Positions 488 through 16,408 are shown, counted from the stretch's first letter. The stretch: DNA of 20,000 nt from an uncultured virus (IMG/VR IMGVR_UViG_3300043803_001696) (IMGVR_UViG_3300043803_001696); one strand, 5' to 3'. Notes: generated by a model not told the origin, from the letters alone. Numbers and translations: made by a program.

Positions 488-562
488 CGCCAATTGTGCA
501 AAGATGTTGTGATTAAAGCTGGCACGATGGAAGTTTGAGCTAGGCTTTTTCCTGTTGTCACC

Positions 563-584
563 AGCCCGCATGAGCGGGCTTTTT
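563..584 (+). terminator. intrinsic terminator-like hairpin immediately upstream of the RNR alpha gene
   Basis: AGCCCGC-ATGA-GCGGGCT followed by TTTT, ending 6 nt before the ATG at 591. Confidence 0.6.
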
Positions 585-590
585 CGTCTC

Positions 591-2036
591 ATGAAGCTGA
601 AGGAAGGAGCCAAGGCAGACAAGATTGCTCGCACAGGAAGAGTCCAAAATTGGATGGATGATACCAATGGACGCTTGCCCGTATCTTGCACAGTTTTTGT
701 AGTTGAAGATTCAATGGAAGGGGAGGAAGGCATTGAAGCATCTTGGCGCTTTGTTTCCCATGGTCTGCGTAATGGTGCAGGAGTTGCTGTTCATTTATCT
801 AATTTGCGCGGCAAAGGGCATGAAAATGGCAAAGGGCTTGTAGCAAGTGGTCCTGTAAGTTTTGGCAAGATTTATTCCACTCTCAATGAAATTCTTCGTC
901 GCGGCGGCGTCTATAAAAACGGGGCTGTAGTATTGCATCTTGATTATGACCATCCTGATGCGCTTGATTTCCTGCAAGCTTCTAGGCAAGAACTTCCATG
1001 GGTGAAACGTTGTCTAAACGTAGACGAAAATTTCCTTGAACGTTCTTCTAAGGAGCTGATTGATACTCTCCTTAAAGGCATTGGCACTGGCGACATCTGG
1101 CTTAATAAGATTCGCTACAACGAAAAAGGCGAGCGCATTCGTGCCAATGTTTGCCTGGAAGTGTATCTCCCCCATCGTGGCACCTGCCTGCTGCAGCATG
1201 TCAATATGGGCGCCTGCTCCATTGAAGACGTGACAGGGGCCTTTGTGGAGGGCATGGAGCAGCTCTGTGAGCTTCATGGCAAAACGGGCGTGGGCGCCAC
1301 AGGCGAATATCTTCCTTCTGTGATTGATAGACAAGTGGGGCTTGGCATGCTTGGGCTTGCTAATTTCCTTTCCCTCCATGGCATTTCTTATGCTGACTTC
1401 GGCAAAGCCCTGAAAGCCTTCAATCAAGAAGATCCGCGAGACTGGTATGAAATTATGGACAAGCCAGTGGGTAATGCCGTATTTGCCATCTTCCAAGGTA
1501 TTAGTGGTGCTGCTGAAGTGGCTCGTGAAGCTGGAATGGAACGCGCCTTCTGCATTGCTCCTACAGCCTCTTGCTCCTACCGCTATTTAGATTCCAAAGG
1601 CTTTACGACAGCCCCTGAAATCGCCCCTCCCATTGCTCGTTTAGTTGATCGGGATAGTGGCACTTTCGGCGTGGAAAGCTTTGACTATGGGGAAGTGGAA
1701 ATTGCTGCTGAAGTGGGCTGGGACAATTACAAACTGGTCGCAGATGAGCTGGTACGTCTGTATCAAAACACTGGTCTTTTCCATGGCTATTCGTATAACT
1801 CATGGAGCGACATTGTTATTTACGACGAGGCCTTCTTGAAAGATTGGCTAGAATCTCCTCAGACAAGCCTCTACTATTCGCTGCAAGTTCTCCCGGACAC
1901 GCAACGAAAAGATGATGCTTACGCTGCCTTAGACGACGAATTTAAGACCATGTTTGGACTCAGCGATACTGAGCCCTTAGGAGAGACTGTCTCTTGTGGC
2001 ATAGATGCTGGTTTCTGCGCTGCATGTGCAGAGTGA
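591..2036 (+). CDS. nrdA: ribonucleotide reductase large (alpha) subunit, minimal cyanophage type (Cyano SP / class O-slash-like clade)
   Basis: Motifs: LPVSC (proximal Cys), finger loop NVCLE, TCLL, IAPTASCS, SLYY tyrosine dyad and C-terminal CAAC. About 481 aa with no ATP cone. Start moved to ATG 591 because the upstream TTG extension overlaps a terminator-like hairpin. Confidence 0.95.
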   Translation: MKLKEGAKADKIARTGRVQNWMDDTNGRLPVSCTVFVVEDSMEGEEGIEASWRFVSHGLRNGAGVAVHLSNLRGKGHENGKGLVASGPVSFGKIYSTLNEILRRGGVYKNGAVVLHLDYDHPDALDFLQASRQELPWVKRCLNVDENFLERSSKELIDTLLKGIGTGDIWLNKIRYNEKGERIRANVCLEVYLPHRGTCLLQHVNMGACSIEDVTGAFVEGMEQLCELHGKTGVGATGEYLPSVIDRQVGLGMLGLANFLSLHGISYADFGKALKAFNQEDPRDWYEIMDKPVGNAVFAIFQGISGAAEVAREAGMERAFCIAPTASCSYRYLDSKGFTTAPEIAPPIARLVDRDSGTFGVESFDYGEVEIAAEVGWDNYKLVADELVRLYQNTGLFHGYSYNSWSDIVIYDEAFLKDWLESPQTSLYYSLQVLPDTQRKDDAYAALDDEFKTMFGLSDTEPLGETVSCGIDAGFCAACAE

Positions 2037-2062
2037 CCCATCCTTCTCCTCCTTTTGTTGAT

Positions 2063-2082
2063 GGGGCCGCTTTGACGGCCCT
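2063..2082 (+). other. intergenic GC-rich hairpin between nrdA and nrdB
   Basis: GGGCCG (2064-2069) pairs with CGGCCC (2076-2081) around a 6-nt loop, followed by a pyrimidine-rich tract. Confidence 0.45.
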
Positions 2083-2123
2083 CTTCTGTCTGTTTTCATT
2101 CCTTTCCATCGCGCTTTCTAATA

Positions 2124-2858
2124 ATGACCGTCCTTGAAAAGAGCCCCTATTCAGCAATGATCGCCAAGAAGCGCCCCTGGCAAGCCACGCCAGTGGACAA
2201 TTCGCCTGTGAAGGAAGGCGCTGAATCCACGCTTTTCAAGACCATTGCTTTGCGCCACCTTGAACTGCCCGTGAAGGACTTGCTTGAGCAAGGCTTACAG
2301 AAGGAACTGCCTTCCACTCCTGGCATCATTGAGGCGTTGCGCTCCAACCAGAAGGATGAAGAGCGTCATGATGAAGCGCTGAACTATGTTGCTGCCGCCT
2401 ATGGCACTGACGAGAAGGCAGAGCGAGAAGTGCAAAACATCTTGAAGGTGTGGATGGAGCACCCCGCCCATCCAATTCATAAAGTGTCCATTATTGAGCG
2501 TTCTATCTTCTTCGTTGCCCTGCCGTTCTTCCGCTTCAATGGCAACATCGGCATGCGCACGGTGTCAGCAGACATTAGCCGTGACGAGCAAGTGCATTGT
2601 GGCGTTCATGGTTTGGTGGCCAAGGAACTGGGCGAAACGGAAACGGAAAGCCTTAATAAGCTGCGCATTGCCACTGCTGGCTGGCTGTTTGAGCACTTGG
2701 GCAAGAGCGATGATCAATGGCTCGACAAAAACGCTTGGATGCAGCGCTCTGAGCGCCTGTTCTGGGAAGGAAAGGCTTCTGGCATGGAAGACTCCCGTCG
2801 TAGCCGTCAAATCGCGTTCTTTGAAAGTTCAAACGTAAATCTTCCATGCTATGGTTGA
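2124..2858 (+). CDS. nrdB: ribonucleotide reductase small (beta) subunit, ferritin-like, cyanophage type
   Basis: Directly downstream of alpha. Di-metal ligand pattern E (RHLE), DEERH, E (IIER), DEQVH. C-terminus AFFESSNVNLPCYG. Leu, not Tyr, lies four residues after the first His ligand. Confidence 0.9.
   Translation: MTVLEKSPYSAMIAKKRPWQATPVDNSPVKEGAESTLFKTIALRHLELPVKDLLEQGLQKELPSTPGIIEALRSNQKDEERHDEALNYVAAAYGTDEKAEREVQNILKVWMEHPAHPIHKVSIIERSIFFVALPFFRFNGNIGMRTVSADISRDEQVHCGVHGLVAKELGETETESLNKLRIATAGWLFEHLGKSDDQWLDKNAWMQRSERLFWEGKASGMEDSRRSRQIAFFESSNVNLPCYG
2823..2855 (+). repeat. imperfect direct repeat, copy 1 (3' end of nrdB)
   Basis: 25 of 33 nt identical to 3516-3548, including a perfect 14-nt core AACGTAAATCTTCC (2832-2845 and 3525-3538). 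Confidence 0.9.
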
Positions 2859-2885
2859 CATTTGATTCCCTTCTTATGCTATGAT
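2855..2885 (+). promoter_or_regulatory. sigma70-type promoter for the HNH gene
   Basis: TTGACA (2855-2860, overlapping the nrdB stop codon), a 19-nt spacer, and extended -10 TGcTATGAT (2877-2885). The spacer is longer than optimal. Confidence 0.6.
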
Positions 2886-2886
2886 T

Positions 2887-2912
2887 ACGGGGTTAACCAC
2901 CCCGTTTTTTTT
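2887..2912 (+). terminator. intrinsic terminator hairpin abutting the HNH start codon
   Basis: ACGGGGT-TAACC-ACCCCGT, with a run of 8 T (2905-2912), then ATG at 2913. Confidence 0.7.
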
Positions 2913-3554
2913 ATGGAAGAAATCTGGAAACCTATTCCTGGCTACGAAAATTTATACGAAGCCTCAAGCTTGGGTAATATTAGATCTGTAGACAGGACTG
3001 TTTTAGATGAGCGAAATCAGAAGCAGCGCACGCGCACATTCAGGGGGAGACAATTGTCCCCAAATATCAATAAAGATAGCGGCCGTCATTCTGTCATGCT
3101 TTCTAAAGAAGGAAAGACAAAAAGATTCACAGTCGCTCGTTTAATTTGCCTGGCTTTTCATGGCTTGCCTCCAGAAGGGAAAAATTTAGTATTGCATTAT
3201 GACGACATTCATACAAATAATATGCCAGAAAACTTAAGGTGGGGCAATCACTTGGAAAATCTAGAAGATTGCGTTCGCAATAGAGGCTCTCATCCCCGTT
3301 ACATTGATGGCAGAAGCAATCGCAAGAGAGGACCAGTCGGGGGCGCCATCTTAAATGAGTATCAAGTAAGAGTGTTGAGGCGACTTCCTGACCTACGCTC
3401 ACTGCGAGGGTTGAGGGAAGACCTGGCCGAAGAGTGGGGAGTCGCTCCTTCTAGCATATCCAGCGCCAAATACAAACAAACAGCGTGGAACACGCTATCT
3501 CCTGTGCCGCTATGGGAAATCGCCAACGTAAATCTTCCTTCCTACGGCTCTTGA
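2913..3554 (+). CDS. NUMOD4 + HNH homing endonuclease with a C-terminal helical domain and an nrdB-derived tail
   Basis: N-terminal EEIWKPIPGYENLYEASSLGNIRS (NUMOD4); HNH_3-like VARLICLAFHG...VLHYDDIHTNNMPENLRWGNHLEN; ends in EIANVNLPSYGS. Confidence 0.92.
   Translation: MEEIWKPIPGYENLYEASSLGNIRSVDRTVLDERNQKQRTRTFRGRQLSPNINKDSGRHSVMLSKEGKTKRFTVARLICLAFHGLPPEGKNLVLHYDDIHTNNMPENLRWGNHLENLEDCVRNRGSHPRYIDGRSNRKRGPVGGAILNEYQVRVLRRLPDLRSLRGLREDLAEEWGVAPSSISSAKYKQTAWNTLSPVPLWEIANVNLPSYGS
3516..3548 (+). repeat. imperfect direct repeat, copy 2 (nrdB-like 3' end fused in frame to the HNH ORF)
   Basis: Encodes EIANVNLPSYG, compared with ESSNVNLPCYG at the end of nrdB. Confidence 0.9.
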
Positions 3555-6637: not shown

Positions 6638-8683
6638 ATGTCGGAAGAAATCGTCAATCTTGGCCACAACGGCAATGAGAGCCTGCGAGTGGACGGTCTG
6701 GTGAATGCCCTCACAGGCATGGGCACTGGTCGCGACAAAAGCCAATTCACTTCCGCCCAGCCCATCGTCTTTCTCACACAGGAAGAACTAGAAAACCTTT
6801 ATTCCGAGTGGATTCCCAAGCGAATTGTGGACATTGTTGCCGAACAAGCCACTAGAAAGGGTTTCAAGGTGCTGTTTGGTGGAGAAGGTGCTGCCGCTGA
6901 AGAGGTGGCTGGCATTGAGCAAATTATCGAGGATTTATACATCCTTGAGAACCTCGGTCTTGCTTGTAAAAATGCACGACTTTTTGGCGGCGCAGTTATT
7001 CTTCTGTACATCGACGACGGGCGCCCTGCAAACCAGCCCGTAGATCGACGGAACATCCGCAGTATTGAAGGTATGGAAGTGCTTGATCGCTGGCAGATTG
7101 CCCCAGTGATCAGCGAGGAAAGTCTCTACGACTATTCCAAGGCCACTTACTATCAAATCATTTCTGGCGACCTCATTCGCCAGCCACAACTCACTTACAT
7201 CCACAAAGACAGGATCCTGAGGTTTGATGGGGAATGGCTTCCCTACAGGATCAGGCAGCGGAACTATGGGTGGGGGATGAGCAGTCTGCAGAGTGTTTAT
7301 GACAGCTTTCGCTTCTATTCCACTGGCATTAGTTCTGCAGCCACGCTTCTTACTGAATTTGACATCTTTGTGCATAAACTTCGCGGCCTGTCCACGATGC
7401 TTGCTGCTGGCAAAGAAAAGGACGTGCGCGATCGCCTGATCTTGAACGACATGAGCAAGAGCGTGTATCGCGGCTATGCAATTGACGCAGAGAAAGAAGA
7501 GCTGGAATTCATTAGCCGCAACTTTGGTGGCATTGGAGAAATCCTGGAGAAACTGCGCATTGATATTATTGGCGCCTCACAAATTCCTCACACCATTCTT
7601 TTTGGGGAAAGCCCTAGCGGATTGGGCTCCACTGGCCGGAGCGAAGAGCGTGACTTTGCAAAAATGTTGGGTGACTATCAGGCATCTCGATTCAAGCGCC
7701 CAATCAAGCATCTCATGGAGATGATTCTTCTGAGCAAAGACGGTCCCACCAATGGACAAGTGCCTGATTCATGGCGCATTCATTTCAACGACTTGTTTGA
7801 ACTGAATGAAAGGGAGAAGGCCGACGTGAGGGCTCGCGTGGCGGCAGTAGACGGCCGTTACATCCAACTTGGCGTGCTCCACCCGAAAGAAGTGGCAGAG
7901 GCCCGTTATGGCGGTTCTGAATGGTCAATGGAACTCACTCTCGACCCATCGCTTCCCCGTGAACTGCCGCAGCCCGGCGGTGAGATGAAAGTGCCTCCTG
8001 GTGGGCGCGACCCAATGAACGAAGAGAATGGCACTCTGCCGATGGACGGAAGCCGTGAGGTGCAAGATGCAGCAGGATTGTTCTTGCCTCGCGACCTTGA
8101 AAAGGTCAGGGGCGACGTGCAGTTCAAAGACAAGGATCTTCACCAGCAAGCCATTGCTGCTACAAAGTCAAAGTTCAAAGTATGGCCGAGCGCTTATGCC
8201 AGCGCATACATGGTTCAGAAATACAAAGAACTTTATTCCAAGAAGCACGGTGGTGGCAGTGGCTTCAAGGGGGACGATGGTGACGTGAATTACGACGATC
8301 TTGACAAGTGGTTCAAGGAAGAATGGGTGAGGATTGGAGCCAATGGAGAAATCCTTGGCGAATGCGGCGGTCGCGAAGAGAAGGAAGGTAAGCCCAAGTG
8401 CCTACCCAAGGCAAAGGCCCAAGCCATGAACAAGGAAGAGCGACAGACGATTGTAGCCCGCAAGCGTAAAGCTGACCCTGATCCTGATCGTCGGGGACCA
8501 GCAAAGCTTGTTAGCAGCAAAGTGGATGCTATTGAGCCCATGAAAGTGGAAGGGCTAATGCTTGCTGACATTGACGAGGCTGCGTTTATTTCGGACGAAG
8601 ACATCGAGGATGCTATGAAGCAATGGAAGGAAGAAGCTCCAGCACAGTTCAAAGAGCTGCTAGAGGCTGACAATGCTGAATGA
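6638..8683 (+). CDS. portal protein (DUF1073 / HI1409-like) with a C-terminal extension of about 240 aa
   Basis: Portal motifs LY...W..KRIVD..AE.ATRKG, ARLFGG, IHKDRILRF, GWGMS.LQ, IPHTILFGESPSGL and F..L...NE.EKA. Followed by a Pro/Gly linker and small domains (KFKVWPSAYASAYMV..YK; LDKWFKEEWV...CG...PKCLP). Confidence 0.9.
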   Translation: MSEEIVNLGHNGNESLRVDGLVNALTGMGTGRDKSQFTSAQPIVFLTQEELENLYSEWIPKRIVDIVAEQATRKGFKVLFGGEGAAAEEVAGIEQIIEDLYILENLGLACKNARLFGGAVILLYIDDGRPANQPVDRRNIRSIEGMEVLDRWQIAPVISEESLYDYSKATYYQIISGDLIRQPQLTYIHKDRILRFDGEWLPYRIRQRNYGWGMSSLQSVYDSFRFYSTGISSAATLLTEFDIFVHKLRGLSTMLAAGKEKDVRDRLILNDMSKSVYRGYAIDAEKEELEFISRNFGGIGEILEKLRIDIIGASQIPHTILFGESPSGLGSTGRSEERDFAKMLGDYQASRFKRPIKHLMEMILLSKDGPTNGQVPDSWRIHFNDLFELNEREKADVRARVAAVDGRYIQLGVLHPKEVAEARYGGSEWSMELTLDPSLPRELPQPGGEMKVPPGGRDPMNEENGTLPMDGSREVQDAAGLFLPRDLEKVRGDVQFKDKDLHQQAIAATKSKFKVWPSAYASAYMVQKYKELYSKKHGGGSGFKGDDGDVNYDDLDKWFKEEWVRIGANGEILGECGGREEKEGKPKCLPKAKAQAMNKEERQTIVARKRKADPDPDRRGPAKLVSSKVDAIEPMKVEGLMLADIDEAAFISDEDIEDAMKQWKEEAPAQFKELLEADNAE

Positions 8684-9350: not shown

Positions 9351-9370
9351 TAAGGCAAAGCTTGAAGCCC

Positions 9371-10123
9371 ATGAAAGTCCTTTTAGGAGACACTGGTTTA
9401 ATTGGCAGAGTTTTGCAGCAATCTACTAACTTTGATGCCACCTTTAATTCCAGCAACATTCACGAGCTGCCGAATATTGCCAATATGCCGGGGCAAGTAG
9501 ACGAGCTGTATCTTGCATGTCTGCCCGCGACGAAGTGGCTAGTTAATCAAGACCCAGCAAAAGATTTAAACAATATTCTTTCCATTGTCGATGTATTGAC
9601 GACAGTTTGGGCGACAAAAGTAATTCTTATTTCTACCATTGATATTTATCAACATACTGACTGCGGAGCAAGTGAAGACTTTTGGACACATTTTGGCCCA
9701 TTGGGTTACGGCTCCAACAGGCTTCTATTTGAAACACTTATCCAAAACACGCTTGCTTTTAACACTTGCATTGTGCGGCTCCCCGCTGTCTTTCATCCGC
9801 TCATTAAAAAGAACATTTTATTTGACTTGCTTAATGATAATAATGTGGAGCAAATCAACGGCAACTCGGCCTATCAGTGGTATCCACTTAATCGTCTATG
9901 GCAAGACATTCAATCGGTAAAAGGCGAAGGTGTAATCAATCTGTTTCCGCCTCCCATTGAAACTTTGGACATTATTGACAAGTTTTTTCCGAATGCGCAA
10001 ATCGCTTCTGGGGATCGAATTTCTTACGATTACAGCACCATGGCCACGCAAAGTGGTTATTGGCTTTCCAAGGATGAAGTGATGCAAGAGATGGAGGCAT
10101 TTATCAATGAAGCTCGGAGTTAG
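9371..10123 (+). CDS. NAD(P)-dependent epimerase/dehydratase (extended SDR-like)
   Basis: Rossmann motif LLGDTGLIG, ILISTIDIY, YGSNR (variant of YxxxK) and IVRLPAVF. Confidence 0.85.
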   Translation: MKVLLGDTGLIGRVLQQSTNFDATFNSSNIHELPNIANMPGQVDELYLACLPATKWLVNQDPAKDLNNILSIVDVLTTVWATKVILISTIDIYQHTDCGASEDFWTHFGPLGYGSNRLLFETLIQNTLAFNTCIVRLPAVFHPLIKKNILFDLLNDNNVEQINGNSAYQWYPLNRLWQDIQSVKGEGVINLFPPPIETLDIIDKFFPNAQIASGDRISYDYSTMATQSGYWLSKDEVMQEMEAFINEARS

Positions 10124-10826
10124 CGCGATTGGCTGGGAAGCCGAGGACCATTCTGAAATCGTGCTGCATCTTCCCGATGGCATTGAACTATTAGAAGCAG
10201 TGCCTTTTAAAAGGCACAGTCGTTTTTCTGGCTGTCTACAAAAATATTCTGCTCAATCGTTGTTCTACGGCATGGACATTGATGCGTTTTGGAATGAACA
10301 GGCTTTTGATCTGTGCTTGGCAAAGTTAATAGCAATGGCGCAAAAATATGAATGGAAAAGAATGGTACTTGGCAGTCCAGGGTTGCGCAAAGATGACAGG
10401 CGTTATTTAATGGACGCGCTTGCAAGAAACAACGATGCGCTTGCCGCCATTGATTGTATTGTTTGCATTGAGCCCGTGGCTAAGCCATATGGTGGTGAAT
10501 ACTTTTTCACGGTTGAAGAAATTGTTCAAAGCCTTGCCGAGTATTCTTTATCGCACGTAGCAACAATGATCGACACAAACAGTGCATGGCTAGAGAGTCA
10601 ATGGCCAGAAGACGTGCTTCTTCAATACTTTCCATACATTAAGCATGTCCACATTAGTGACCAAAACATTGGCGCCATTATTTGCCAGGACAAGCACGAA
10701 CGTTTTGCAGAGGCGTTGCGCAATACCGAGTATGAAGGCGGAGTGATTCGCGAGCTATTAAAGGCAAAAAACTATCCAGGTGAGTACGATTATTTCGCTC
10801 AAATTTACAAGCCATCCAGCATTTGA
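10107..10826 (+). CDS. sugar phosphate isomerase/epimerase (xylose isomerase-like TIM barrel)
   Basis: Motifs KLGVSAIGW, VLGSP..R, CIEP, MIDT and HVHIS; GGAGG upstream. Confidence 0.8.
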   Translation: MKLGVSAIGWEAEDHSEIVLHLPDGIELLEAVPFKRHSRFSGCLQKYSAQSLFYGMDIDAFWNEQAFDLCLAKLIAMAQKYEWKRMVLGSPGLRKDDRRYLMDALARNNDALAAIDCIVCIEPVAKPYGGEYFFTVEEIVQSLAEYSLSHVATMIDTNSAWLESQWPEDVLLQYFPYIKHVHISDQNIGAIICQDKHERFAEALRNTEYEGGVIRELLKAKNYPGEYDYFAQIYKPSSI

Positions 10827-11788
10827 CGCACTCGCTCTTCAATTAAGTAGATGCCTTGAATTTTGCCTGTGTAGCAAGACAGAAGATTGTCTTGCTGTTT
10901 GAATAATGGCGCTCGATAGGCACTGGCATTACTTCGCTTGCTTTTCATTGAAAGCACAATGCTGTGCTGAGAGAGATGGTTTGAAAAATCAGGCCAGTAA
11001 TGACAAACGTGATTTTCTGCTTTACGTCTAAGCTGTTCCAACTGTTCCCTTGATGGTTCTTCGTTGACAGGAGCGACTGATTCCGTCGCAACGCTATGCA
11101 CCACATGACTTAAAGAAACGGTGCCATCATGAAATGGATAAAAAGAAAACAATGGCCCGTCAATATAAGTAAGAGCGCCAAAAGGCAAAGGCTTTTGAAC
11201 GCTATAAAGAAACATTGCCACTGCTTCAAAGTATTCATTCTTTGATGGTTTCAATAGCGCATTATTAGTGCAATCAATTACCAAATCAAAGTCGCTTTTT
11301 AATCTTTCTACATCCTTGCTTGTAATTTCGCTTTGCTTGAACAATGGAGATAGCCGCTCAGAAAAGAATTTTTTGGCCTCTATGGGGGAAATGTAGCGCT
11401 CCTGTGTGCGCCAGACCATAGAAGTGTCACGGAGGAAGCTAGTCTCAACTTCTTCGTGTTGCCAAAGCAATGGAGGGAAAATAGTCTTAATAGTTCCAGC
11501 ATCTAAAAGGCTCTCGTCCTCTGGCACTGCGTACAAATTATTTTTTACAGCATAAGTAAGTGCTCCATATTCGTGCATAAAACGATCAAAAGTGAGCCGA
11601 CATAATGCGCGTGTGGCGGAATTTCTAGCGTAGTGGTAGCCAAGGTGAAGGCGGTTTTGGTTTACCAGTGAAGCGCCGTGGAATGGCTCATGCTCGCGAT
11701 CAAAAAGCGTGATGCAATATTCATTTCTAAGCTGATAGGCCAAGTGACATCCCACCCAGCCAGCTCCAATAATTGCCAAGCGTTTCAT
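10805..11788 (-). CDS. FAD-dependent oxidoreductase (DAO-like)
   Basis: AIIGAGWVG dinucleotide-binding motif, GAS..NQNRLHLGYHY and C-terminal YTGKI. Confidence 0.85.
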   Translation of the reverse strand: MKRLAIIGAGWVGCHLAYQLRNEYCITLFDREHEPFHGASLVNQNRLHLGYHYARNSATRALCRLTFDRFMHEYGALTYAVKNNLYAVPEDESLLDAGTIKTIFPPLLWQHEEVETSFLRDTSMVWRTQERYISPIEAKKFFSERLSPLFKQSEITSKDVERLKSDFDLVIDCTNNALLKPSKNEYFEAVAMFLYSVQKPLPFGALTYIDGPLFSFYPFHDGTVSLSHVVHSVATESVAPVNEEPSREQLEQLRRKAENHVCHYWPDFSNHLSQHSIVLSMKSKRSNASAYRAPLFKQQDNLLSCYTGKIQGIYLIEERVRQMLDGL

Positions 11789-12483
11789 TAAATGTCAATA
11801 CAAAGGTGAGGTTGAACGCCTTGCCAATTACTTTTTGCTTTGGCTAGGTCCAATTGAGGGAAGTATTCAATGCGGCGTTGTGAGCCAGTGCCATACGGGT
11901 CGGCGTGCCCCTGGTAATTCCACTCGTCAGGGCCATGACTATCTAGATGGTAAACATGGCAATGTGCGTCTTGGAGTTTCCAAAGCATGTAATCCTCGTT
12001 TGGCACTCCCCATTGCTTCCACTGTTGAAGTGCTTCTGGAGAGCTGTCCATGTTTTTGATGGCCATTAAGCGATCTCGATGCTGCATGAGATAGTCGTGG
12101 CGATACAGGCCAATACTCATTGACGGCGTGTATTTCATTGCAACCTTTTCTGGTGCATCCACAGGAGGCTCATAGGCTAATTGCTTAAAGGCCGCGCCTG
12201 CAATGCAGGTGTCATGCAGAAGGAACCAATATTCGCTTTCCATGGATTGCTCAACAATTTCAATGAGCGGGGTGTATTCAAAAGAATTTTGCTGCGTTAG
12301 CAACATTGGAACGCCTTCGCAGTCTGTCAAAGTATGAGCAGTCTGTCCACCATTCACAATTAATATTTCCTCTGGTTCGATACCAGCCGCAAGCAAGCTT
12401 GGAATAATTACTGGAATGGTATGGGGCGCAAACTTTTTGCAAGTACTGATACAGAAGCGAATCGAGCCCTCTGGAAGTGCCAT
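11788..12483 (-). CDS. putative GT-A fold glycosyltransferase
   Basis: N-terminal beta-alpha pattern (FCIST...ILIVNG), NSFEY and YWFLLHDTC (DxD-equivalent); located within a glycosyltransferase cluster. Confidence 0.6.
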   Translation of the reverse strand: MALPEGSIRFCISTCKKFAPHTIPVIIPSLLAAGIEPEEILIVNGGQTAHTLTDCEGVPMLLTQQNSFEYTPLIEIVEQSMESEYWFLLHDTCIAGAAFKQLAYEPPVDAPEKVAMKYTPSMSIGLYRHDYLMQHRDRLMAIKNMDSSPEALQQWKQWGVPNEDYMLWKLQDAHCHVYHLDSHGPDEWNYQGHADPYGTGSQRRIEYFPQLDLAKAKSNWQGVQPHLCIDI

Positions 12484-12544
12484 TTAGTCCCCTTTTGTCA
12501 TCAGTATAAAAGCCCACTAGGATGGCGAAGATTCACGAAGGATT

Positions 12545-13768
12545 ATGGCTCGCGTTCTTTATTGCGGTGACGCATTCGTTCAAACGGGCTTTGGACGAGT
12601 GGCTGAATACCTGCTCCCTGCGCTTGCTGAGAAGCACGAAGTGCATGTGCTCGCCACTAATTACCATGGCGACCACGATGAGGAGGCCATTAAATACAAA
12701 ACTTACCCAGCCATGGTGCATGGCTCCGACCCATTTGGCGGCCATCGTATTGCCGAACTAGTTCAAACCATTAAGCCTGATCTCGTATGGGTGACGAATG
12801 ATCTGTGGGTGGCTATTAACTTGTGGGGGGCAGTAAAGACTCTCAGGGAAACAATTCCCTTTAAATTTTTTGTATATACGCCCATTGACAGCTATGGCAT
12901 TTTCCCTGAGCTAAATGGTCCAGTGAGCGAATGGGATGGACTCGCCACTTACACAGAATTTGGCAAAGAAGAGCTAGTCAAGATGGGCTATGAAAAGCCT
13001 ATCGCCGTCATTCCACATGGCACGGACTTCACTAAATTCTTCCCCATTGACCCTCTTGAATGCCGCAAGGAGCTAGGCGTGCCAGGGGATACGTTTATTG
13101 TCTTCAATGGCAATAGGAACCAACCACGCAAGCGCATTGACTTGACCATTAAAGGCTTCGTTGAATTTGCCAAGGACAAGCCTGACGCTCGCCTGTGGCT
13201 AAATATGGGAGCTAAGGATATGGGCTGGGAGTTGATTCCATTGTTTAAGCGCGTGGCGCGTGATGCAGGGTATGACGCTGCTGGCAAGCTTATTCTCACT
13301 AGCCCGCATTTCTCCACGCATAACTGCCTTCCCATTGAACAATTGAACAAGGTTTACAACTCTGTTGATATTGGCCTAAACACCTGCATAGGCGAAGGAT
13401 GGGGCCTGGTGAACAGTGAGCACGCTGCTACAGGCGTTGCGCAAGTAGTACCCGACCACACAAGTCTTAAGGAGATTTTTAATGACATTCCACGCATCGC
13501 TTGTAACGGTTCCGAAACTGATAGAAACTATGGTTTAGAGCGTTTACTGCCTGACCCCAGTAGCGTTGCTGACATCCTTAATTACTACTACGAGGATCGT
13601 AATGCTTTGAAGGCTGCTGGTAATTGGTGCTACGAGCGCATTCACGAAAAGCAATTCACCTGGCCTGTCATCACCAAAAAGATGTTGCGCATCGTAAATG
13701 AAGTGCTTAATCAAAAGCCAAGTGATCAAGAGTTTAAAGGTTTTGGCACCCCCGCAAAAATTGTTTAA
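12545..13768 (+). CDS. GT-B fold glycosyltransferase (GT4-like)
   Basis: Motifs TGFGRV, IPHG.D...F.P, NRNQPRKRID and YNSVD.....GEGWGL...E. Confidence 0.9.
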   Translation: MARVLYCGDAFVQTGFGRVAEYLLPALAEKHEVHVLATNYHGDHDEEAIKYKTYPAMVHGSDPFGGHRIAELVQTIKPDLVWVTNDLWVAINLWGAVKTLRETIPFKFFVYTPIDSYGIFPELNGPVSEWDGLATYTEFGKEELVKMGYEKPIAVIPHGTDFTKFFPIDPLECRKELGVPGDTFIVFNGNRNQPRKRIDLTIKGFVEFAKDKPDARLWLNMGAKDMGWELIPLFKRVARDAGYDAAGKLILTSPHFSTHNCLPIEQLNKVYNSVDIGLNTCIGEGWGLVNSEHAATGVAQVVPDHTSLKEIFNDIPRIACNGSETDRNYGLERLLPDPSSVADILNYYYEDRNALKAAGNWCYERIHEKQFTWPVITKKMLRIVNEVLNQKPSDQEFKGFGTPAKIV

Positions 13769-13773
13769 TCATC

Positions 13774-14487
13774 ATGCAAGTATCACAAATTTTTCTTTCT
13801 GATAACGGCGCCGAACTGTCACCATTCCTAGGACACGCCACGGGCACTGTACGTCAAGCATTTCCTGACGCAGACCATCACATTTACACCAAGGAAACCC
13901 TTCGCGCCTTCATTGAAGCTAACTATTCAGGGGAAGTGCTATGGGCCTACGACTGTCTAAAGCCCTATTCGTATAAAGCTGATCTTGGCAGGTTTTGCTT
14001 GTTGAATAAGCTTGGAGGGTGGTACATGGACATTGCCGTCAGAATGGTAAATCCAGTGGAGGTGGGAGATCGTATTGAATTTTTGGCCTTCCGCGATATT
14101 CAACGATTTAGCTACACCACTTGGGCCTGCGCGACCACTGTTCTTTATTCAAAGCCCGACAACATAGCACTGACTACTGCCATTGAAATGATTGTCAACA
14201 ACTGTCACGAACAGTACTACGGAATCACTCCATTGTGCCCCACTGGCCCAACATTACTAGGAGCAGCTCTTGCTGCAAATGGCGGCAATGCCAATTTCGT
14301 CTACGGCGATTATCTAGAACTGACACCCACGCACGAACAAAAGAATCGTGCCTTTGTGCTGCCCGATGGCACGATCATGGCGTGGAGCAAGCCTTCGGGA
14401 GGGGGCGACTTGACTGGCGTTGGGGCCAAGGGTGTAAACAATTACAACGAACTTTGGGCTGCGAGGCAGGTATATGCAACCGTCTGA
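13774..14487 (+). CDS. DxD glycosyltransferase (GT32 / Och1-like)
   Basis: Motifs KADLGRFCLL...GGWYMDI and TGP.LLG. Confidence 0.85.
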   Translation: MQVSQIFLSDNGAELSPFLGHATGTVRQAFPDADHHIYTKETLRAFIEANYSGEVLWAYDCLKPYSYKADLGRFCLLNKLGGWYMDIAVRMVNPVEVGDRIEFLAFRDIQRFSYTTWACATTVLYSKPDNIALTTAIEMIVNNCHEQYYGITPLCPTGPTLLGAALAANGGNANFVYGDYLELTPTHEQKNRAFVLPDGTIMAWSKPSGGGDLTGVGAKGVNNYNELWAARQVYATV

Positions 14488-15190
14488 TTGCGCAATTTAT
14501 GCCGTGTGCATTCCTGGCGAAGAAGTGCGTTACCAAGCGCAGTCTCAAATTATTCCCATCATGGGAGGAAGTTATAGTCTTAATGAAAAAGAACGAGAAA
14601 AGTTGCGACTAAAGGGTTACGCTTTTGACGATGAAAACGCTGACTATTCCTCCTTGAATAAATATTGGGGGGAGCTGTCTTGTATTCATTGGATGCTTAA
14701 AAATGCAAAACAAAGTAATATCGGAAATGCTCAATATCGGCGCAACTGGATAGAGCCAGCGGAGATTTGGTATGTAAAAGATACTTTATATGTGCCAGAA
14801 TTTGCAGAGTTTAGCTGCAGCCTTGAGCAGCAATTTTATGGCGGACACTCGGGCTTTGATGCACCTGCTATCACGAAAGAGCTGGCGGATAGTGGCGCAT
14901 GGGTATTTACCAGAGAAGAGATTGATAAGCTGTGGGCTCAAAATTTATTCATTGGTTGCAACATGGCGCGTGGCCCGAGGATTCATTATCAATTATTCAT
15001 GGAAACATTATTCACCTGTTTGTCACCTATATGGAGCCGATACAAGGAGCGCTTTCTTTCTATTGATGGTTATGACAAGCGTGCCTTAGCCTTTATAGCT
15101 GAACGATTGATAACAGGCCTGGTGCTATATCGCGACAAATTCTTCCCTAATATGAAAATTGAAACAGCCCCAATAGGCTTTATTTCTTAG
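14474..15190 (+). CDS. DUF4422-like putative glycosyltransferase
   Basis: Motifs N..WGELS..HW, IG.AQYRR, CNM and R..AFIAERL. Confidence 0.7.
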   Translation: MQPSDCAIYAVCIPGEEVRYQAQSQIIPIMGGSYSLNEKEREKLRLKGYAFDDENADYSSLNKYWGELSCIHWMLKNAKQSNIGNAQYRRNWIEPAEIWYVKDTLYVPEFAEFSCSLEQQFYGGHSGFDAPAITKELADSGAWVFTREEIDKLWAQNLFIGCNMARGPRIHYQLFMETLFTCLSPIWSRYKERFLSIDGYDKRALAFIAERLITGLVLYRDKFFPNMKIETAPIGFIS

Positions 15191-15205: not shown

Positions 15206-15463
15206 ATGACCAAAAAGCAAAAGCAAGCAAAAGTGTCTCGCGTCATGAAGGAATTCAAGGCAGGCACGCTGAAAAGCAGTAGCGGCGACCCCATTAAAAA
15301 CTACAAGCAAGCGGTTGCAATTGCCCTCTCTGAAGCCGGCATGAGCATGCCAAAGAAGGATGCAAGCGAAGAGTACATGCGGGCATTCATTCGCCAAGTG
15401 CTTCAAGAAGAAGAGGCGATGGAAGAAGAAGGAGAAGAGGAGGAAGAACAGGGAAAGGATTGA
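15206..15463 (+). CDS. small basic/acidic protein, DUF6496-like (frameshift ORF A)
   Basis: KV.RVMKEFKAG.LKSSSG......KQAVAIALSEA followed by a poly-Glu tail; ends CAG GGA AAG GAT TGA. Confidence 0.8.
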   Translation: MTKKQKQAKVSRVMKEFKAGTLKSSSGDPIKNYKQAVAIALSEAGMSMPKKDASEEYMRAFIRQVLQEEEAMEEEGEEEEEQGKD

Positions 15464-15494
15464 GGGGAGATGCCCAGTCATTCTCCCCTCCATC
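15437..15494 (+). promoter_or_regulatory. programmed -1 ribosomal frameshift signal
   Basis: Internal SD GAGGAGG (15437-15443), slippery heptamer G GGA AAG (15451-15457) in the correct phase, and a perfect 9-bp stem GAGGGGAGA/TCTCCCCTC (15462-15470/15482-15490). Confidence 0.8.
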
Positions 15495-15807
15495 GTCTGT
15501 ACGGTCTTCCGCTCGTCGCGGCCTAGAACTGCGTAAGAAGCACGGCAAAGGCGGTCTTAGCACGCAAGAGGCTGGCAAGCAGGGCATTGGAAGTGGAGTG
15601 GCAAGAGCTTCTGATTTGGCTGGTGGCGGCGCCGTGAGCTATGCAACGATCAAAAGGATGGCTGCATTCTTCTCTCGCCATGAAAAGAACAAAAGCGGAG
15701 GGGAAGATGATGCTGGTTACATCGCATGGTTGCTATGGGGAGGAAACGCGGGTAAGGCATGGGCCAATCGCATTATTAAGATGGTTGAAAGCGCTAAAGA
15801 TCAATGA
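15460..15807 (+). CDS. phage domain of unknown function (frameshift ORF B), probably expressed as a ~200-aa A-B fusion
   Basis: Lies in the -1 frame relative to ORF A, with only a TTG start overlapping the hairpin. Motifs ARRGLELR..HG.GG, GVARA.DL, RM..FF.RH and IAWLLWGG..G..WA. Confidence 0.8.
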   Translation: MRGDAQSFSPPSSVRSSARRGLELRKKHGKGGLSTQEAGKQGIGSGVARASDLAGGGAVSYATIKRMAAFFSRHEKNKSGGEDDAGYIAWLLWGGNAGKAWANRIIKMVESAKDQ

Positions 15808-16112
15808 GCGAATACGTGCGGGTGATTGAAGAAGAGGAGGATGGCATTGGCGTTATGAAAGCGCTTGCCATTCTTTCTGCCAACGAGCACCGCAACACCT
15901 CACAGTGGCGCCTCGTCGAAGAACAGCATTTCAAAAATGGACGCCTCGATGAAACCCACATTTTTGTCATCAATGCCTATGACAAGCCTGACGAGCATTT
16001 TGATCAGGTGAAGATGCTGGTTTTTGAGGCTGAGGCTATTGCAAAGTCTTATGTGATGGAAGGTATTGAAAGTCAACTTGCAGAACTGTCGGATGAAGAG
16101 GACGATGATTAA
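15804..16112 (+). CDS. acidic hypothetical protein (102 aa)
   Basis: ATGA overlap with the upstream ORF; protein-like composition. Confidence 0.75.
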   Translation: MSEYVRVIEEEEDGIGVMKALAILSANEHRNTSQWRLVEEQHFKNGRLDETHIFVINAYDKPDEHFDQVKMLVFEAEAIAKSYVMEGIESQLAELSDEEDDD

Positions 16113-16408
16113 TCTTCGCTTACTGCGGAGACTACAAATGTGGGATAGCCAAGAAGATACAAAATTGAAAGCTGAAAAGCAGAACTAAGCAAGCGTATCT
16201 CCGCACAGTCAGGCGAAATAATACCTCGCTCCATTCGCGAAACGGTGGTTTGGTCGCAATGAAGAATGGCCGCTATGTCGCATTGTGACATGCCGCTGTT
16301 GAGACGAGCTTCTTTTATGCGCTGTCCAATCACTTGCCTACTTTCCTGCATGGAAAGCATGGGAGCTTTTACTTTTGTGGTGATGCGCCGATGCTGAATA
16401 TGCTGCAT
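16109..16408 (-). CDS. XRE/Cro-C1 family helix-turn-helix protein
   Basis: IGQRIKEARLNSGMSQ.DIA..L...QTTVSRMERG...P; TAGACT hexamer 23 nt upstream. The true start may be a downstream ATG. Confidence 0.88.
   Translation of the reverse strand: MQHIQHRRITTKVKAPMLSMQESRQVIGQRIKEARLNSGMSQCDIAAILHCDQTTVSRMERGIISPDCAEIRLLSSAFQLSILYLLGYPTFVVSAVSED

Follow-up and report, generated by a model that had tools for sequence, protein, structure and literature searches.

The dnaX gene of Escherichia coli, with its products tau and gamma, contains the slippery heptamer A_AAA_AAG together with an upstream Shine-Dalgarno (SD) sequence and a downstream hairpin. In the OrfAB arrangement of IS3/IS911, an A_AAA_AAG or related heptamer with a downstream structure fuses two overlapping open reading frames (ORFs), the second of which is without an efficient start. 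To our knowledge, conserved programmed frameshifts are rare in tailed phages once the tail chaperones and a handful of capsid genes are set aside. For phage lambda, the relevant passage of a recoding review gives the G:GT ratio as 30:1 and as crucial for assembly (PMC5009743), and frameshift clusters of the IS3/IS911 type are mentioned in an excerpt of PMC4066793. The locus described here was found in a stretch of 20,000 nucleotides of DNA, hereafter the window, from the uncultured lake-water virus IMGVR_UViG_3300043803_001696. It contains two ORFs, ORF A and ORF B, which on comparative sequence evidence very probably form a conserved cassette for -1 programmed ribosomal frameshifting with two predicted products, an 85-aa DUF6496 protein and a 200-aa protein composed of DUF6496, a linker and a second domain, here termed domain B. 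An earlier reading of the window from its sequence alone (the sequence-only reading) had proposed the same cassette with the same two products, and all the comparative tests (heptamer, stem and start codons) were found to support it.

Cassette anatomy and proposed mechanism

The features of the cassette are listed in Table 1; the positions of ORF A, heptamer, SD-like sequence, stem and ORF B in the sequence-only reading were all found to be correct to the base. ORF A was found to match PF20106 (DUF6496) over residues 4-50 with 35.4 bits (gathering cut-off 24, E 1.4e-8), and its 3′ end contained the codons CAG (15449-15451), GGA (15452-15454), AAG (15455-15457), GAT (15458-15460) and TGA (15461-15463). 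The heptamer was followed, 4 nt later, by the presence of a perfectly paired 9-bp stem with the arms GAGGGGAGA and TCTCCCCTC, of which a 7-bp core (15464-15470 / 15482-15488) was conserved in relatives. The local fold was -19.8 kcal/mol (z = -2.0 against shuffles). The only candidate start of ORF B past the upstream stop was the TTG at 15460, which overlaps the ORF A stop (TTGA). The predicted transframe product, coded by 15206-15457 and then by the -1 frame, contains 84 + 1 + 115 = 200 aa with the junction ...EQGK-G-LRGDAQS. The heptamer GGGAAAG was found three times in the window against 2.65 expected, which is chance level, so the case must rest on its phase, its position and its conservation in relatives.

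Table 1. Features of the frameshift cassette and the following ORF, in window positions
Feature	Position	Strand	Description
ORF A	15206-15463	+	85 aa; DUF6496 core at residues 4-50, then helix, acidic tail and QGKD-stop; zero-frame product
Shine-Dalgarno-like GAGGAGG	15437-15443	+	7 nt upstream of heptamer; possible stimulator
Slippery heptamer G_GGA_AAG	15451-15457	+	X_XXY_YYZ in ORF A phase
-1 frame after slip	15457-15807	+	GGA (15457-15459), then ORF B (15460-15807), 115 codons, phrog_2859
ORF A stop TGA	15461-15463	+	One codon 3′ of heptamer, within stem base
Candidate stimulatory hairpin	15462-15490	+	5′ arm 15462-15470, 3′ arm 15482-15490, 11-nt loop
102-aa ORF	15804-16112	+	ATG overlaps ORF B stop (ATGA); kept after cassette in relatives, in-frame ones included

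For most ribosomes, the codons GGA AAG GAT would be followed by termination at TGA, and the product would be the 85-aa DUF6496 protein. The hairpin 4-6 nt downstream would resist unwinding so that a fraction of ribosomes pause on G_GGA_AAG, both tRNAs would re-pair on GGG AAA, and translation would continue in the -1 frame with GGA TTG AGG GGA GAT up to 15807. The 200-aa product would thus contain the DUF6496 domain, a disordered acidic linker and domain B, and the arrangement would serve to supply domain B, attached to the DUF6496 module, at a low and fixed level for action inside the capsid near the portal. We infer the ribosomal slippage, its efficiency and its purpose. The dosing of a capsid-interior domain B into heads is a likely purpose, which we infer rather than report as a finding because sister lineages with hard-wired in-frame fusions exist.

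Conservation of the heptamer among relatives

Relatives were collected from IMG/VR by scans with ORF B (429 relatives, 80 loci kept), with ORF A (214 relatives, 80 loci kept) and with the in-frame fusion protein P0125 (88 relatives, 80 loci kept). The junctions were anchored on the conserved F-x-P-P codons and not on RGD, and 203 rows with an ORF B match were obtained, including the window and Synechococcus phage S-CBS4; a single contig may recur up to three times in these rows. Four rows were dropped, L203 and L236 as contig ends and L102 and L223 for having no F-x-P-P anchor, and the remaining 199 rows were reduced to 120 distinct junctions of 100 nt.

The sequence-only reading had set homologs that keep the heptamer against homologs that lack it and give ORF B a start of its own. 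The -1 arrangement with an in-phase X_XXA_AAG at the same place was found to be conserved in 109 of the 120 distinct junctions, and a start codon stood at the beginning of ORF B in only 8 of these 109, so that the heptamer pattern and phase were kept as that reading had anticipated. Three heptamers were present, A_AAA_AAG in 71 junctions, G_GGA_AAG in 29 and C_CCA_AAG in 9 (one of the latter, L233, shifted by a codon). ORF A and ORF B were found in a single frame in nine junctions (L059, L071, L105, L116, L118, L164, L166, L169 and L017), ORF B was found alone with its own ATG (ATG-RGD, no ORF A) in L051, and in L112 a missing base placed the heptamer out of phase. Single-base lesions were present in a few contigs, namely L102 (one-base deletion in the loop), L112 and L229. 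Six loci were found among contigs of metagenome-assembled genomes (MAGs), all of them in MAG bins; four loci in MAG contigs were of the -1 type, beyond the 109 junctions. In row L103 (1501-1800), a natural deletion was found in which ORF A runs straight into the last ORF B codons and domain B is gone entirely.

In 98 of the 109 junctions of the -1 type, a single codon separated the heptamer from the ORF A stop, and in 8 the stop followed the heptamer immediately. The codon 5′ of GGA was CAG, GAG, TCG, GCG, CTG, ATG or GTG; the residue varied and the final base X was invariant, so the nucleotide is conserved and not the amino acid. The reading frame of ORF B was found to be open and its protein 84-100% conserved among relatives. 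A quick maximum-likelihood tree was built on the body of ORF B (300 nt), omitting the columns of the trait itself. On this tree the heptamer type changed at least 16 times (mean of 34 for shuffled labels) with pattern and phase constant, and the architecture, frameshift versus non-frameshift, changed at least 6 times (mean of 9.7 for shuffled labels); both counts are possibly inflated by recombination and were taken with branch supports left out of consideration.

The nearest isolate was Synechococcus phage S-CBS4, with 71.5% DNA identity over 69% of a 2.6-kb query, in which the two ORFs are annotated as the separate hypothetical proteins gp018 and gp019. The 3′ end of gp018 (AGA AAA AAG GGC TAA) was found to contain an in-phase A_AAA_AAG, giving the layout of the window with a different heptamer, followed by the presence of an 8-bp stem (AGGGGCGA / TCGCCCCT). 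Compared with the window stem, one pair was changed on both arms (A-U to C-G), which is compensatory. The -1 frame of S-CBS4 was open from just 5′ of the heptamer and 78% identical to ORF B from the first residue, and gp020 was found to occupy the position of the 102-aa ORF of the window.

The sequence of the cassette was also compared with that of other runs. A 1929-nt DNA contig from a different lake-water run was found to cover 15225-15850 with zero differences, and at least 95% of the sampled words were present in 19 runs. Since independent runs contain the identical sequence, an assembly error is not the source of the cassette. From an RNA library, a contig of 152 nt was found to cover 15391-15542, with heptamer and hairpin, in genomic sequence and with no indel, and the RNA-library runs contained only small shares of the window stretch. 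This comparison was made of contigs only, from which rare variants drop out; DNA may occur in RNA libraries, and such a contig is not proof of transcription.

Hairpin, SD-like sequence and RGD motif

The stem was aligned without gaps over 68 junctions of the -1 type from the ORF B and ORF A scans (60 distinct rows). The nine-pair stem was found to be formed in 93% of cells, a value reached by 0 of 500 shuffles, and slid partners gave 57-74%. RNAalifold returned the 7-bp core from the same alignment. One pair, 20/36, was found to covary (AU 28, CG 17, UG 8, GU 4, unpaired 3), and it is formed between position 3 of the Gly codon and position 1 of the Ser/Ala codon. The conservation and covariation of the stem proposed as a check in the sequence-only reading were thus found, with the stem kept and one pair covarying. 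A second compensated pair was present in L215, which contains RDD for RGD and Val for Ser/Ala, and in which a perfect stem (GGGACGA / TCGTCCC) is formed via changes on both arms. The mean minimum free energy of the 38 nt 3′ of the heptamer was -16.7 kcal/mol in the 109 -1-type junctions versus -10.0 kcal/mol in 8 clean in-frame ones (Mann-Whitney p = 7e-5, uncorrected for relatedness). Four junctions of a sub-lineage with C_CCA_AAG (L204, L211, L233 and L247) were found to contain SLD or ALD for RGD and no stable hairpin (-2.6 to -6 kcal/mol).

An SD-like 4-mer was present 3-20 nt upstream of the heptamer in 65 of the 109 -1-type junctions, and the GAGGAGG of the window was found to fall in the GAG/GAA Glu codons of the acidic tail. 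The sequence-only reading had assigned the combination of SD, heptamer and hairpin to the dnaX/IS3 architecture. Its heptamer and hairpin were retained, and the upstream SD was dropped as a member of a conserved dnaX-like triad for want of conservation.

The junction motif RGD-A, to which the same reading had drawn attention, was found to be lineage-specific and mostly to reflect the GGGG arm of the hairpin. RGD was absent across the wider ORF B family alignment, in which two prolines were at least 90% conserved. In 49 in-frame A-B fusions, taken from 240 listed rows and chosen for PF20106 or by prior inspection (a non-exhaustive sample), the motif was RGD in 30, RDD in 18 and KED in 1. Among the 109 -1-type junctions, the Gly of RGD was changed to Asp once, in L215, where the change is compensated in the stem. 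Since the Gly codon contributes two of the four G nucleotides of the hairpin 5′ arm, and since the motif is absent from the wider family and replaced in some in-frame fusions, RGD is best read, from these sequences, as an imprint of RNA structure on the protein. A functional adhesion motif of the integrin type was dropped as a candidate in view of the absence of RGD from the wider family and of the RDD or KED in 19 of the 49 in-frame fusions.

Natural in-frame fusions

The protein database was found to contain many proteins of 170-218 aa composed of DUF6496 and domain B. Three of them (P0156, P0012 and P0013) contained ..SCGKK-ALRGD.. or ..KKQKK-VDRGD.., which is the exact peptide predicted for a -1 slip on A_AAA_AAG; they correspond to one extra A in the run, which is either real or a homopolymer error. 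The in-frame junction of L017 (2480-2510) was found to contain one A more than the L046 type (AGA AAA AAA GTA GAT AGG). For L017, P0013, P0156 and P0012, the fused frame contains an in-phase A_AAA_AAA, from which slippage by -1 would run into a stop within a few codons. These extra-A variants may follow an inverted, dnaX-like logic in which the shift truncates, unless they are homopolymer assembly errors.

The AlphaFold2 (AF2) model of the natural fusion P0168 was found to contain two confidently modelled domains (residues 1-66 and 88-199) with a disordered acidic linker (68-86) between them, at a predicted local distance difference test score (pLDDT) of 83 and a predicted template modelling score (pTM) of 0.54; the pLDDT of the DUF6496 domain was 80-89. 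The shift site falls within the linker of a fusion model of this type. No structural match to the fusion model was found in the PDB. A three-copy complex prediction for ORF A gave a score of 0.02, which is uninformative on self-association.

Domain B and its partners

The AF2 model of ORF B was found to be all-alpha with seven helices (pLDDT 88.7, pTM 0.80), and the domain comprises roughly 110 aa. ORF B matched part of phrog_2859. No Pfam family was found at E <= 0.01 and no NCBIfam family, a search of PDB sequences returned no match with E under 0.5, and no solved structure was found to resemble the fold (best E of 1.3 with Foldseek against the PDB, best Z of 4.2 with VIA-align wide). In the ESM Atlas, only unnamed viral clusters were found. 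None of the Pfam LPD models matched ORF B, which only shares proteins with such domains.

Homologs of domain B at E <= 1e-3 were found in 2853 longer proteins and 1762 proteins of similar length. Among the 120 longer proteins listed, the domain was present at the N-terminus in 54, in the middle in 34 and at the C-terminus in 32, with an identity of 54-87%. The partners included Phage_portal, Phage_portal_3 with DUF5872, XkdF protease with ChaB, Phage_capsid, InPase, LPD1, ddrB-ParB, an SNF2-type helicase, a methyltransferase and Acb1 with NUDIX, WGR and ART. The 821-aa protein P0018 was found to contain the portal type of the window, Phage_portal_3 with DUF5872, followed by the presence of domain B at the C-terminus. 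The matches in BFVD left this picture of partners unchanged. Stand-alone DUF6496 genes were found in structural modules, adjoining small genes of the PHROG families that match the portal extension of the window. The partners listed above make up the repertoire of phage polyvalent proteins, for which Iyer et al. 2017 predict packaging in the capsid (PMC5512222). Because domain B is fused elsewhere to the C-terminus of portals, to prohead proteases and to polyvalent proteins, it most likely acts inside the capsid near the portal, as judged from these domain fusions.

Alternative explanations

ORF A and ORF B could be two separate genes, ORF B being translated by termination-reinitiation at the TTG at 15460 without any frameshift, as might be expected from the overlap of this TTG, at ORF B codon 1 in the window, with the TGA. 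Codon 1 of ORF B was found to be CTG in 50 of the 109 -1-type junctions, CTA in 23, TTA in 16, TTG in 6, ATG in 1, GTG in 1 and others in 12, which leaves a possible start (TTG, ATG or GTG) in 8 relatives and a non-start in 101. The claim of the sequence-only reading that ORF B has no start of its own except a TTG overlapping the stem held in the window, and in these 101 junctions the corresponding codon is no start. The ORF B of L051, with ATG-RGD and no ORF A, favours separate translation, as does gp019 of S-CBS4, annotated as its own gene from a GTG further in; this GTG is GTA in the window. The window TTG is itself part of the base of the hairpin (-20 kcal/mol), and reinitiation leaves unexplained both the in-phase X_XXA_AAG, in three variants at one position, and the fixed X base. 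Because 101 of the 109 junctions contain a non-start as the first ORF B codon, reinitiation at the window TTG is not, on this codon evidence, the conserved mechanism, and as a substitute for the frameshift it is improbable; it may be a minor route in the window itself.

Transcriptional slippage, with a base inserted or skipped by RNA polymerase along the A run, was considered in view of the runs of 6-8 A in 71 of the 109 junctions and of the extra-A in-frame variants (L017, P0013, P0156 and P0012), which DNA or RNA polymerase slippage could yield. The window and 37 other distinct junctions contain only AAA (in G_GGA_AAG or C_CCA_AAG), and an AAA run is not long enough for a polymerase to slip. 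Both the strict phasing of the heptamer with the codons and a 3′ hairpin placed at 4-6 nt are signals to the ribosome, not to the polymerase. The RNA-library contig over 15391-15542, which is without an indel, also speaks against it, weakly, since contigs drop rare variants. Slippage of the polymerase is very improbable as the source of the fusion product.

A broken gene, that is, an ancestral A-B fusion with a frameshift mutation or an assembly error and an unexpressed ORF B, would agree with the common in-frame fusions of sister lineages and the obvious single-base lesions of L102, L112 and L229, but it is extremely improbable given the same -1 offset in 109 distinct junctions, the open ORF B with its 84-100% conserved protein and the identical sequence in independent runs, and a random lesion would not coincide with a conserved heptamer and a covarying stem.

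Several points weigh against the conserved -1 frameshift or its proposed purpose. Related junctions do not count as independent, and the significance given by the shuffle tests is overstated. Covariation in the main set is limited to one stem pair; the remaining pairs never vary and coincide with the conserved R-G and P-P codons, so that coding constraint accounts for part of the stem's conservation. A -1 stimulator would be expected further away than the 4 nt that separate heptamer and first pair, although the conserved core is reached after 6 nt, and the absence of the hairpin in L204, L211, L233 and L247 makes it helpful and not indispensable. ORF B of the window begins with TTG, a possible start, and L051, with its own ATG, indicates that independent production of domain B is possible. 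That A_AAG is slippery is assumed on the basis of E. coli and not of the phage's own host with its tRNA-Lys set. The family can do without a fixed A:A-B ratio, as its in-frame sister lineages show, and the function of domain B is proposed from domain fusions.

The conserved -1 frameshift is nevertheless preferred to the three alternatives. A broader picture is put forward tentatively and may well not hold in full: the cassette could be a hitherto unrecognised and widespread recoding module of aquatic siphovirus-like phages, in which a -1 shift tethers a mobile cargo domain of the capsid interior and portal, itself a new family without a solved fold, to a DUF6496 carrier at a set low dose, and in which lineages repeatedly toggle among the three heptamers, in-frame fusion and the dnaX-like inverted logic with one extra A.

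Genomic setting

The window belongs to a 48.6-kb IMG/VR virus record with an estimated completeness of 68%. It was found to contain ribonucleotide reductase genes and then an HNH endonuclease (555-3554), followed by a terminase on the minus strand and the Phage_portal_3 portal (6638-8683) with a C-terminal DUF5872 extension at residues 498-595. The 493-aa alpha-like ORF of the ribonucleotide reductase matched family profiles in parts only, and the beta subunit was also present. A block of sugar-modifying and glycosyltransferase genes (9362-15190) lies between the portal and head genes and contained a xylose-isomerase-like TIM barrel, an FAD oxidoreductase (minus strand), a GT4 glycosyltransferase, a DXD sugar-binding glycosyltransferase and DUF4422; the sugar block of S-CBS4 was similar but not identical and included genes for a methyltransferase and an HNH endonuclease. 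In the window the block is followed by ORF A and ORF B, and after them the 102-aa ORF, a repressor on the minus strand, the DUF2213 prohead protease, a cement protein and the major capsid protein. The repressor (16109-16408) is a small helix-turn-helix protein (Xre/cI-like) in the middle of the head module, just 5′ of the prohead protease, and gp021 of S-CBS4 was found likewise. For the 102-aa ORF, no family was found in Pfam, PHROG or NCBIfam. Since this ORF, whose ATG overlaps the ORF B stop, is kept beside the cassette, it is probably translationally coupled to ORF B.

The sequence-only reading had held that ORF A and ORF B are not tail chaperones, which was borne out. The two ORFs sit between the portal/glycosyltransferase genes and the prohead protease, not between a major tail protein and a tape measure gene, and no similarity to chaperone families was found in Pfam and PHROG profile searches. 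A second candidate -1 frameshift was found elsewhere in the same genome (L251 2755-3734; G000:C1 about 25254-26233). It contains two ORFs in -1 overlap directly 5′ of a 1536-aa ORF of tape-measure size, with an in-phase A_AAA_AAA at L251 3261-3267. Its position makes tail assembly chaperones the probable identity of this pair; PHROG searches with it gave no match.

Comparison with known systems

No mention of DUF6496 was found in the literature searched, and none of the listings and abstracts covered linked S-CBS4 or cyanophages with this frameshift. The literature on frameshifting together with portal or capsid contained tail-chaperone or T7-type cases only, and the words 'prohead', 'scaffold' and 'cyanophage' were absent from the 300,000 characters of the recoding review that were covered (PMC5009743). 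No annotation or paper on this site was found; the supplementary cluster tables of PMC3711429 and PMC4066793 might list the family. The mechanism is canonical, and the gene family and its context appear undescribed.

The cassette adds a well-supported new family to the few conserved frameshifts of tailed phages, and its junctions provide a ready mutational series of more than 100 distinct natural variants, with three types of heptamer, compensated and uncompensated stems, and in-frame junctions as controls. It corrects how gp018/gp019 of S-CBS4 are annotated, along with hundreds of metagenomic genes at present predicted as pairs of hypothetical proteins, and S-CBS4 on Synechococcus CB0101 offers an isolate system in which the dose of domain B could be manipulated. 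Attention is also drawn to domain B itself, which is highly conserved (55-80% identity across unrelated architectures), is uncharacterised, and travels with portals, prohead proteases and polyvalent anti-defence proteins. The RGD illustrates that a protein 'motif' can be an imprint of RNA structure.

The cassette resembles dnaX in the X_XXA_AAG class of its heptamer (the A_AAA_AAG of most relatives is identical), in a hairpin a few nt downstream and in predicted products with a common N-terminus. It differs in that the shift would extend the product here and truncates it in dnaX, in that the SD-like sequence is not conserved, and in that the proteins are unrelated. With IS3/IS911 it shares a heptamer and downstream structure at two overlapping ORFs, the second of them short of an efficient start. 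Different biology and proteins separate it from IS3/IS911, as does the coexistence of natural in-frame fusions in sister lineages. The heptamer G_GGA_AAG of lambda G/GT is identical to that of the window and, by analogy, the pattern of a short abundant product and a rare C-terminally extended one from overlapping genes of a structural module would be shared, whereas the window cassette lies in the head module, is without similarity to the chaperone family and has a conserved hairpin.

Recoding of a head gene with a minor extended form would be shared with T7 gene 10A/10B and the Listeria phages PSA and A118 (covered in part by PMC5009743). These phages extend the major capsid protein with a G_GUU_UUC or +1 site, whereas here a small DUF6496 carrier would be extended by a mobile domain. 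Like the polyvalent proteins treated in PMC5512222, domain B shares polypeptides with LPD1, InPase, ddrB-ParB, SNF2 helicase, methyltransferase, ART, NUDIX and portal domains. Unlike them, it would be joined to its partner by recoding and not by gene fusion; the term 'frameshift' is absent from that paper.

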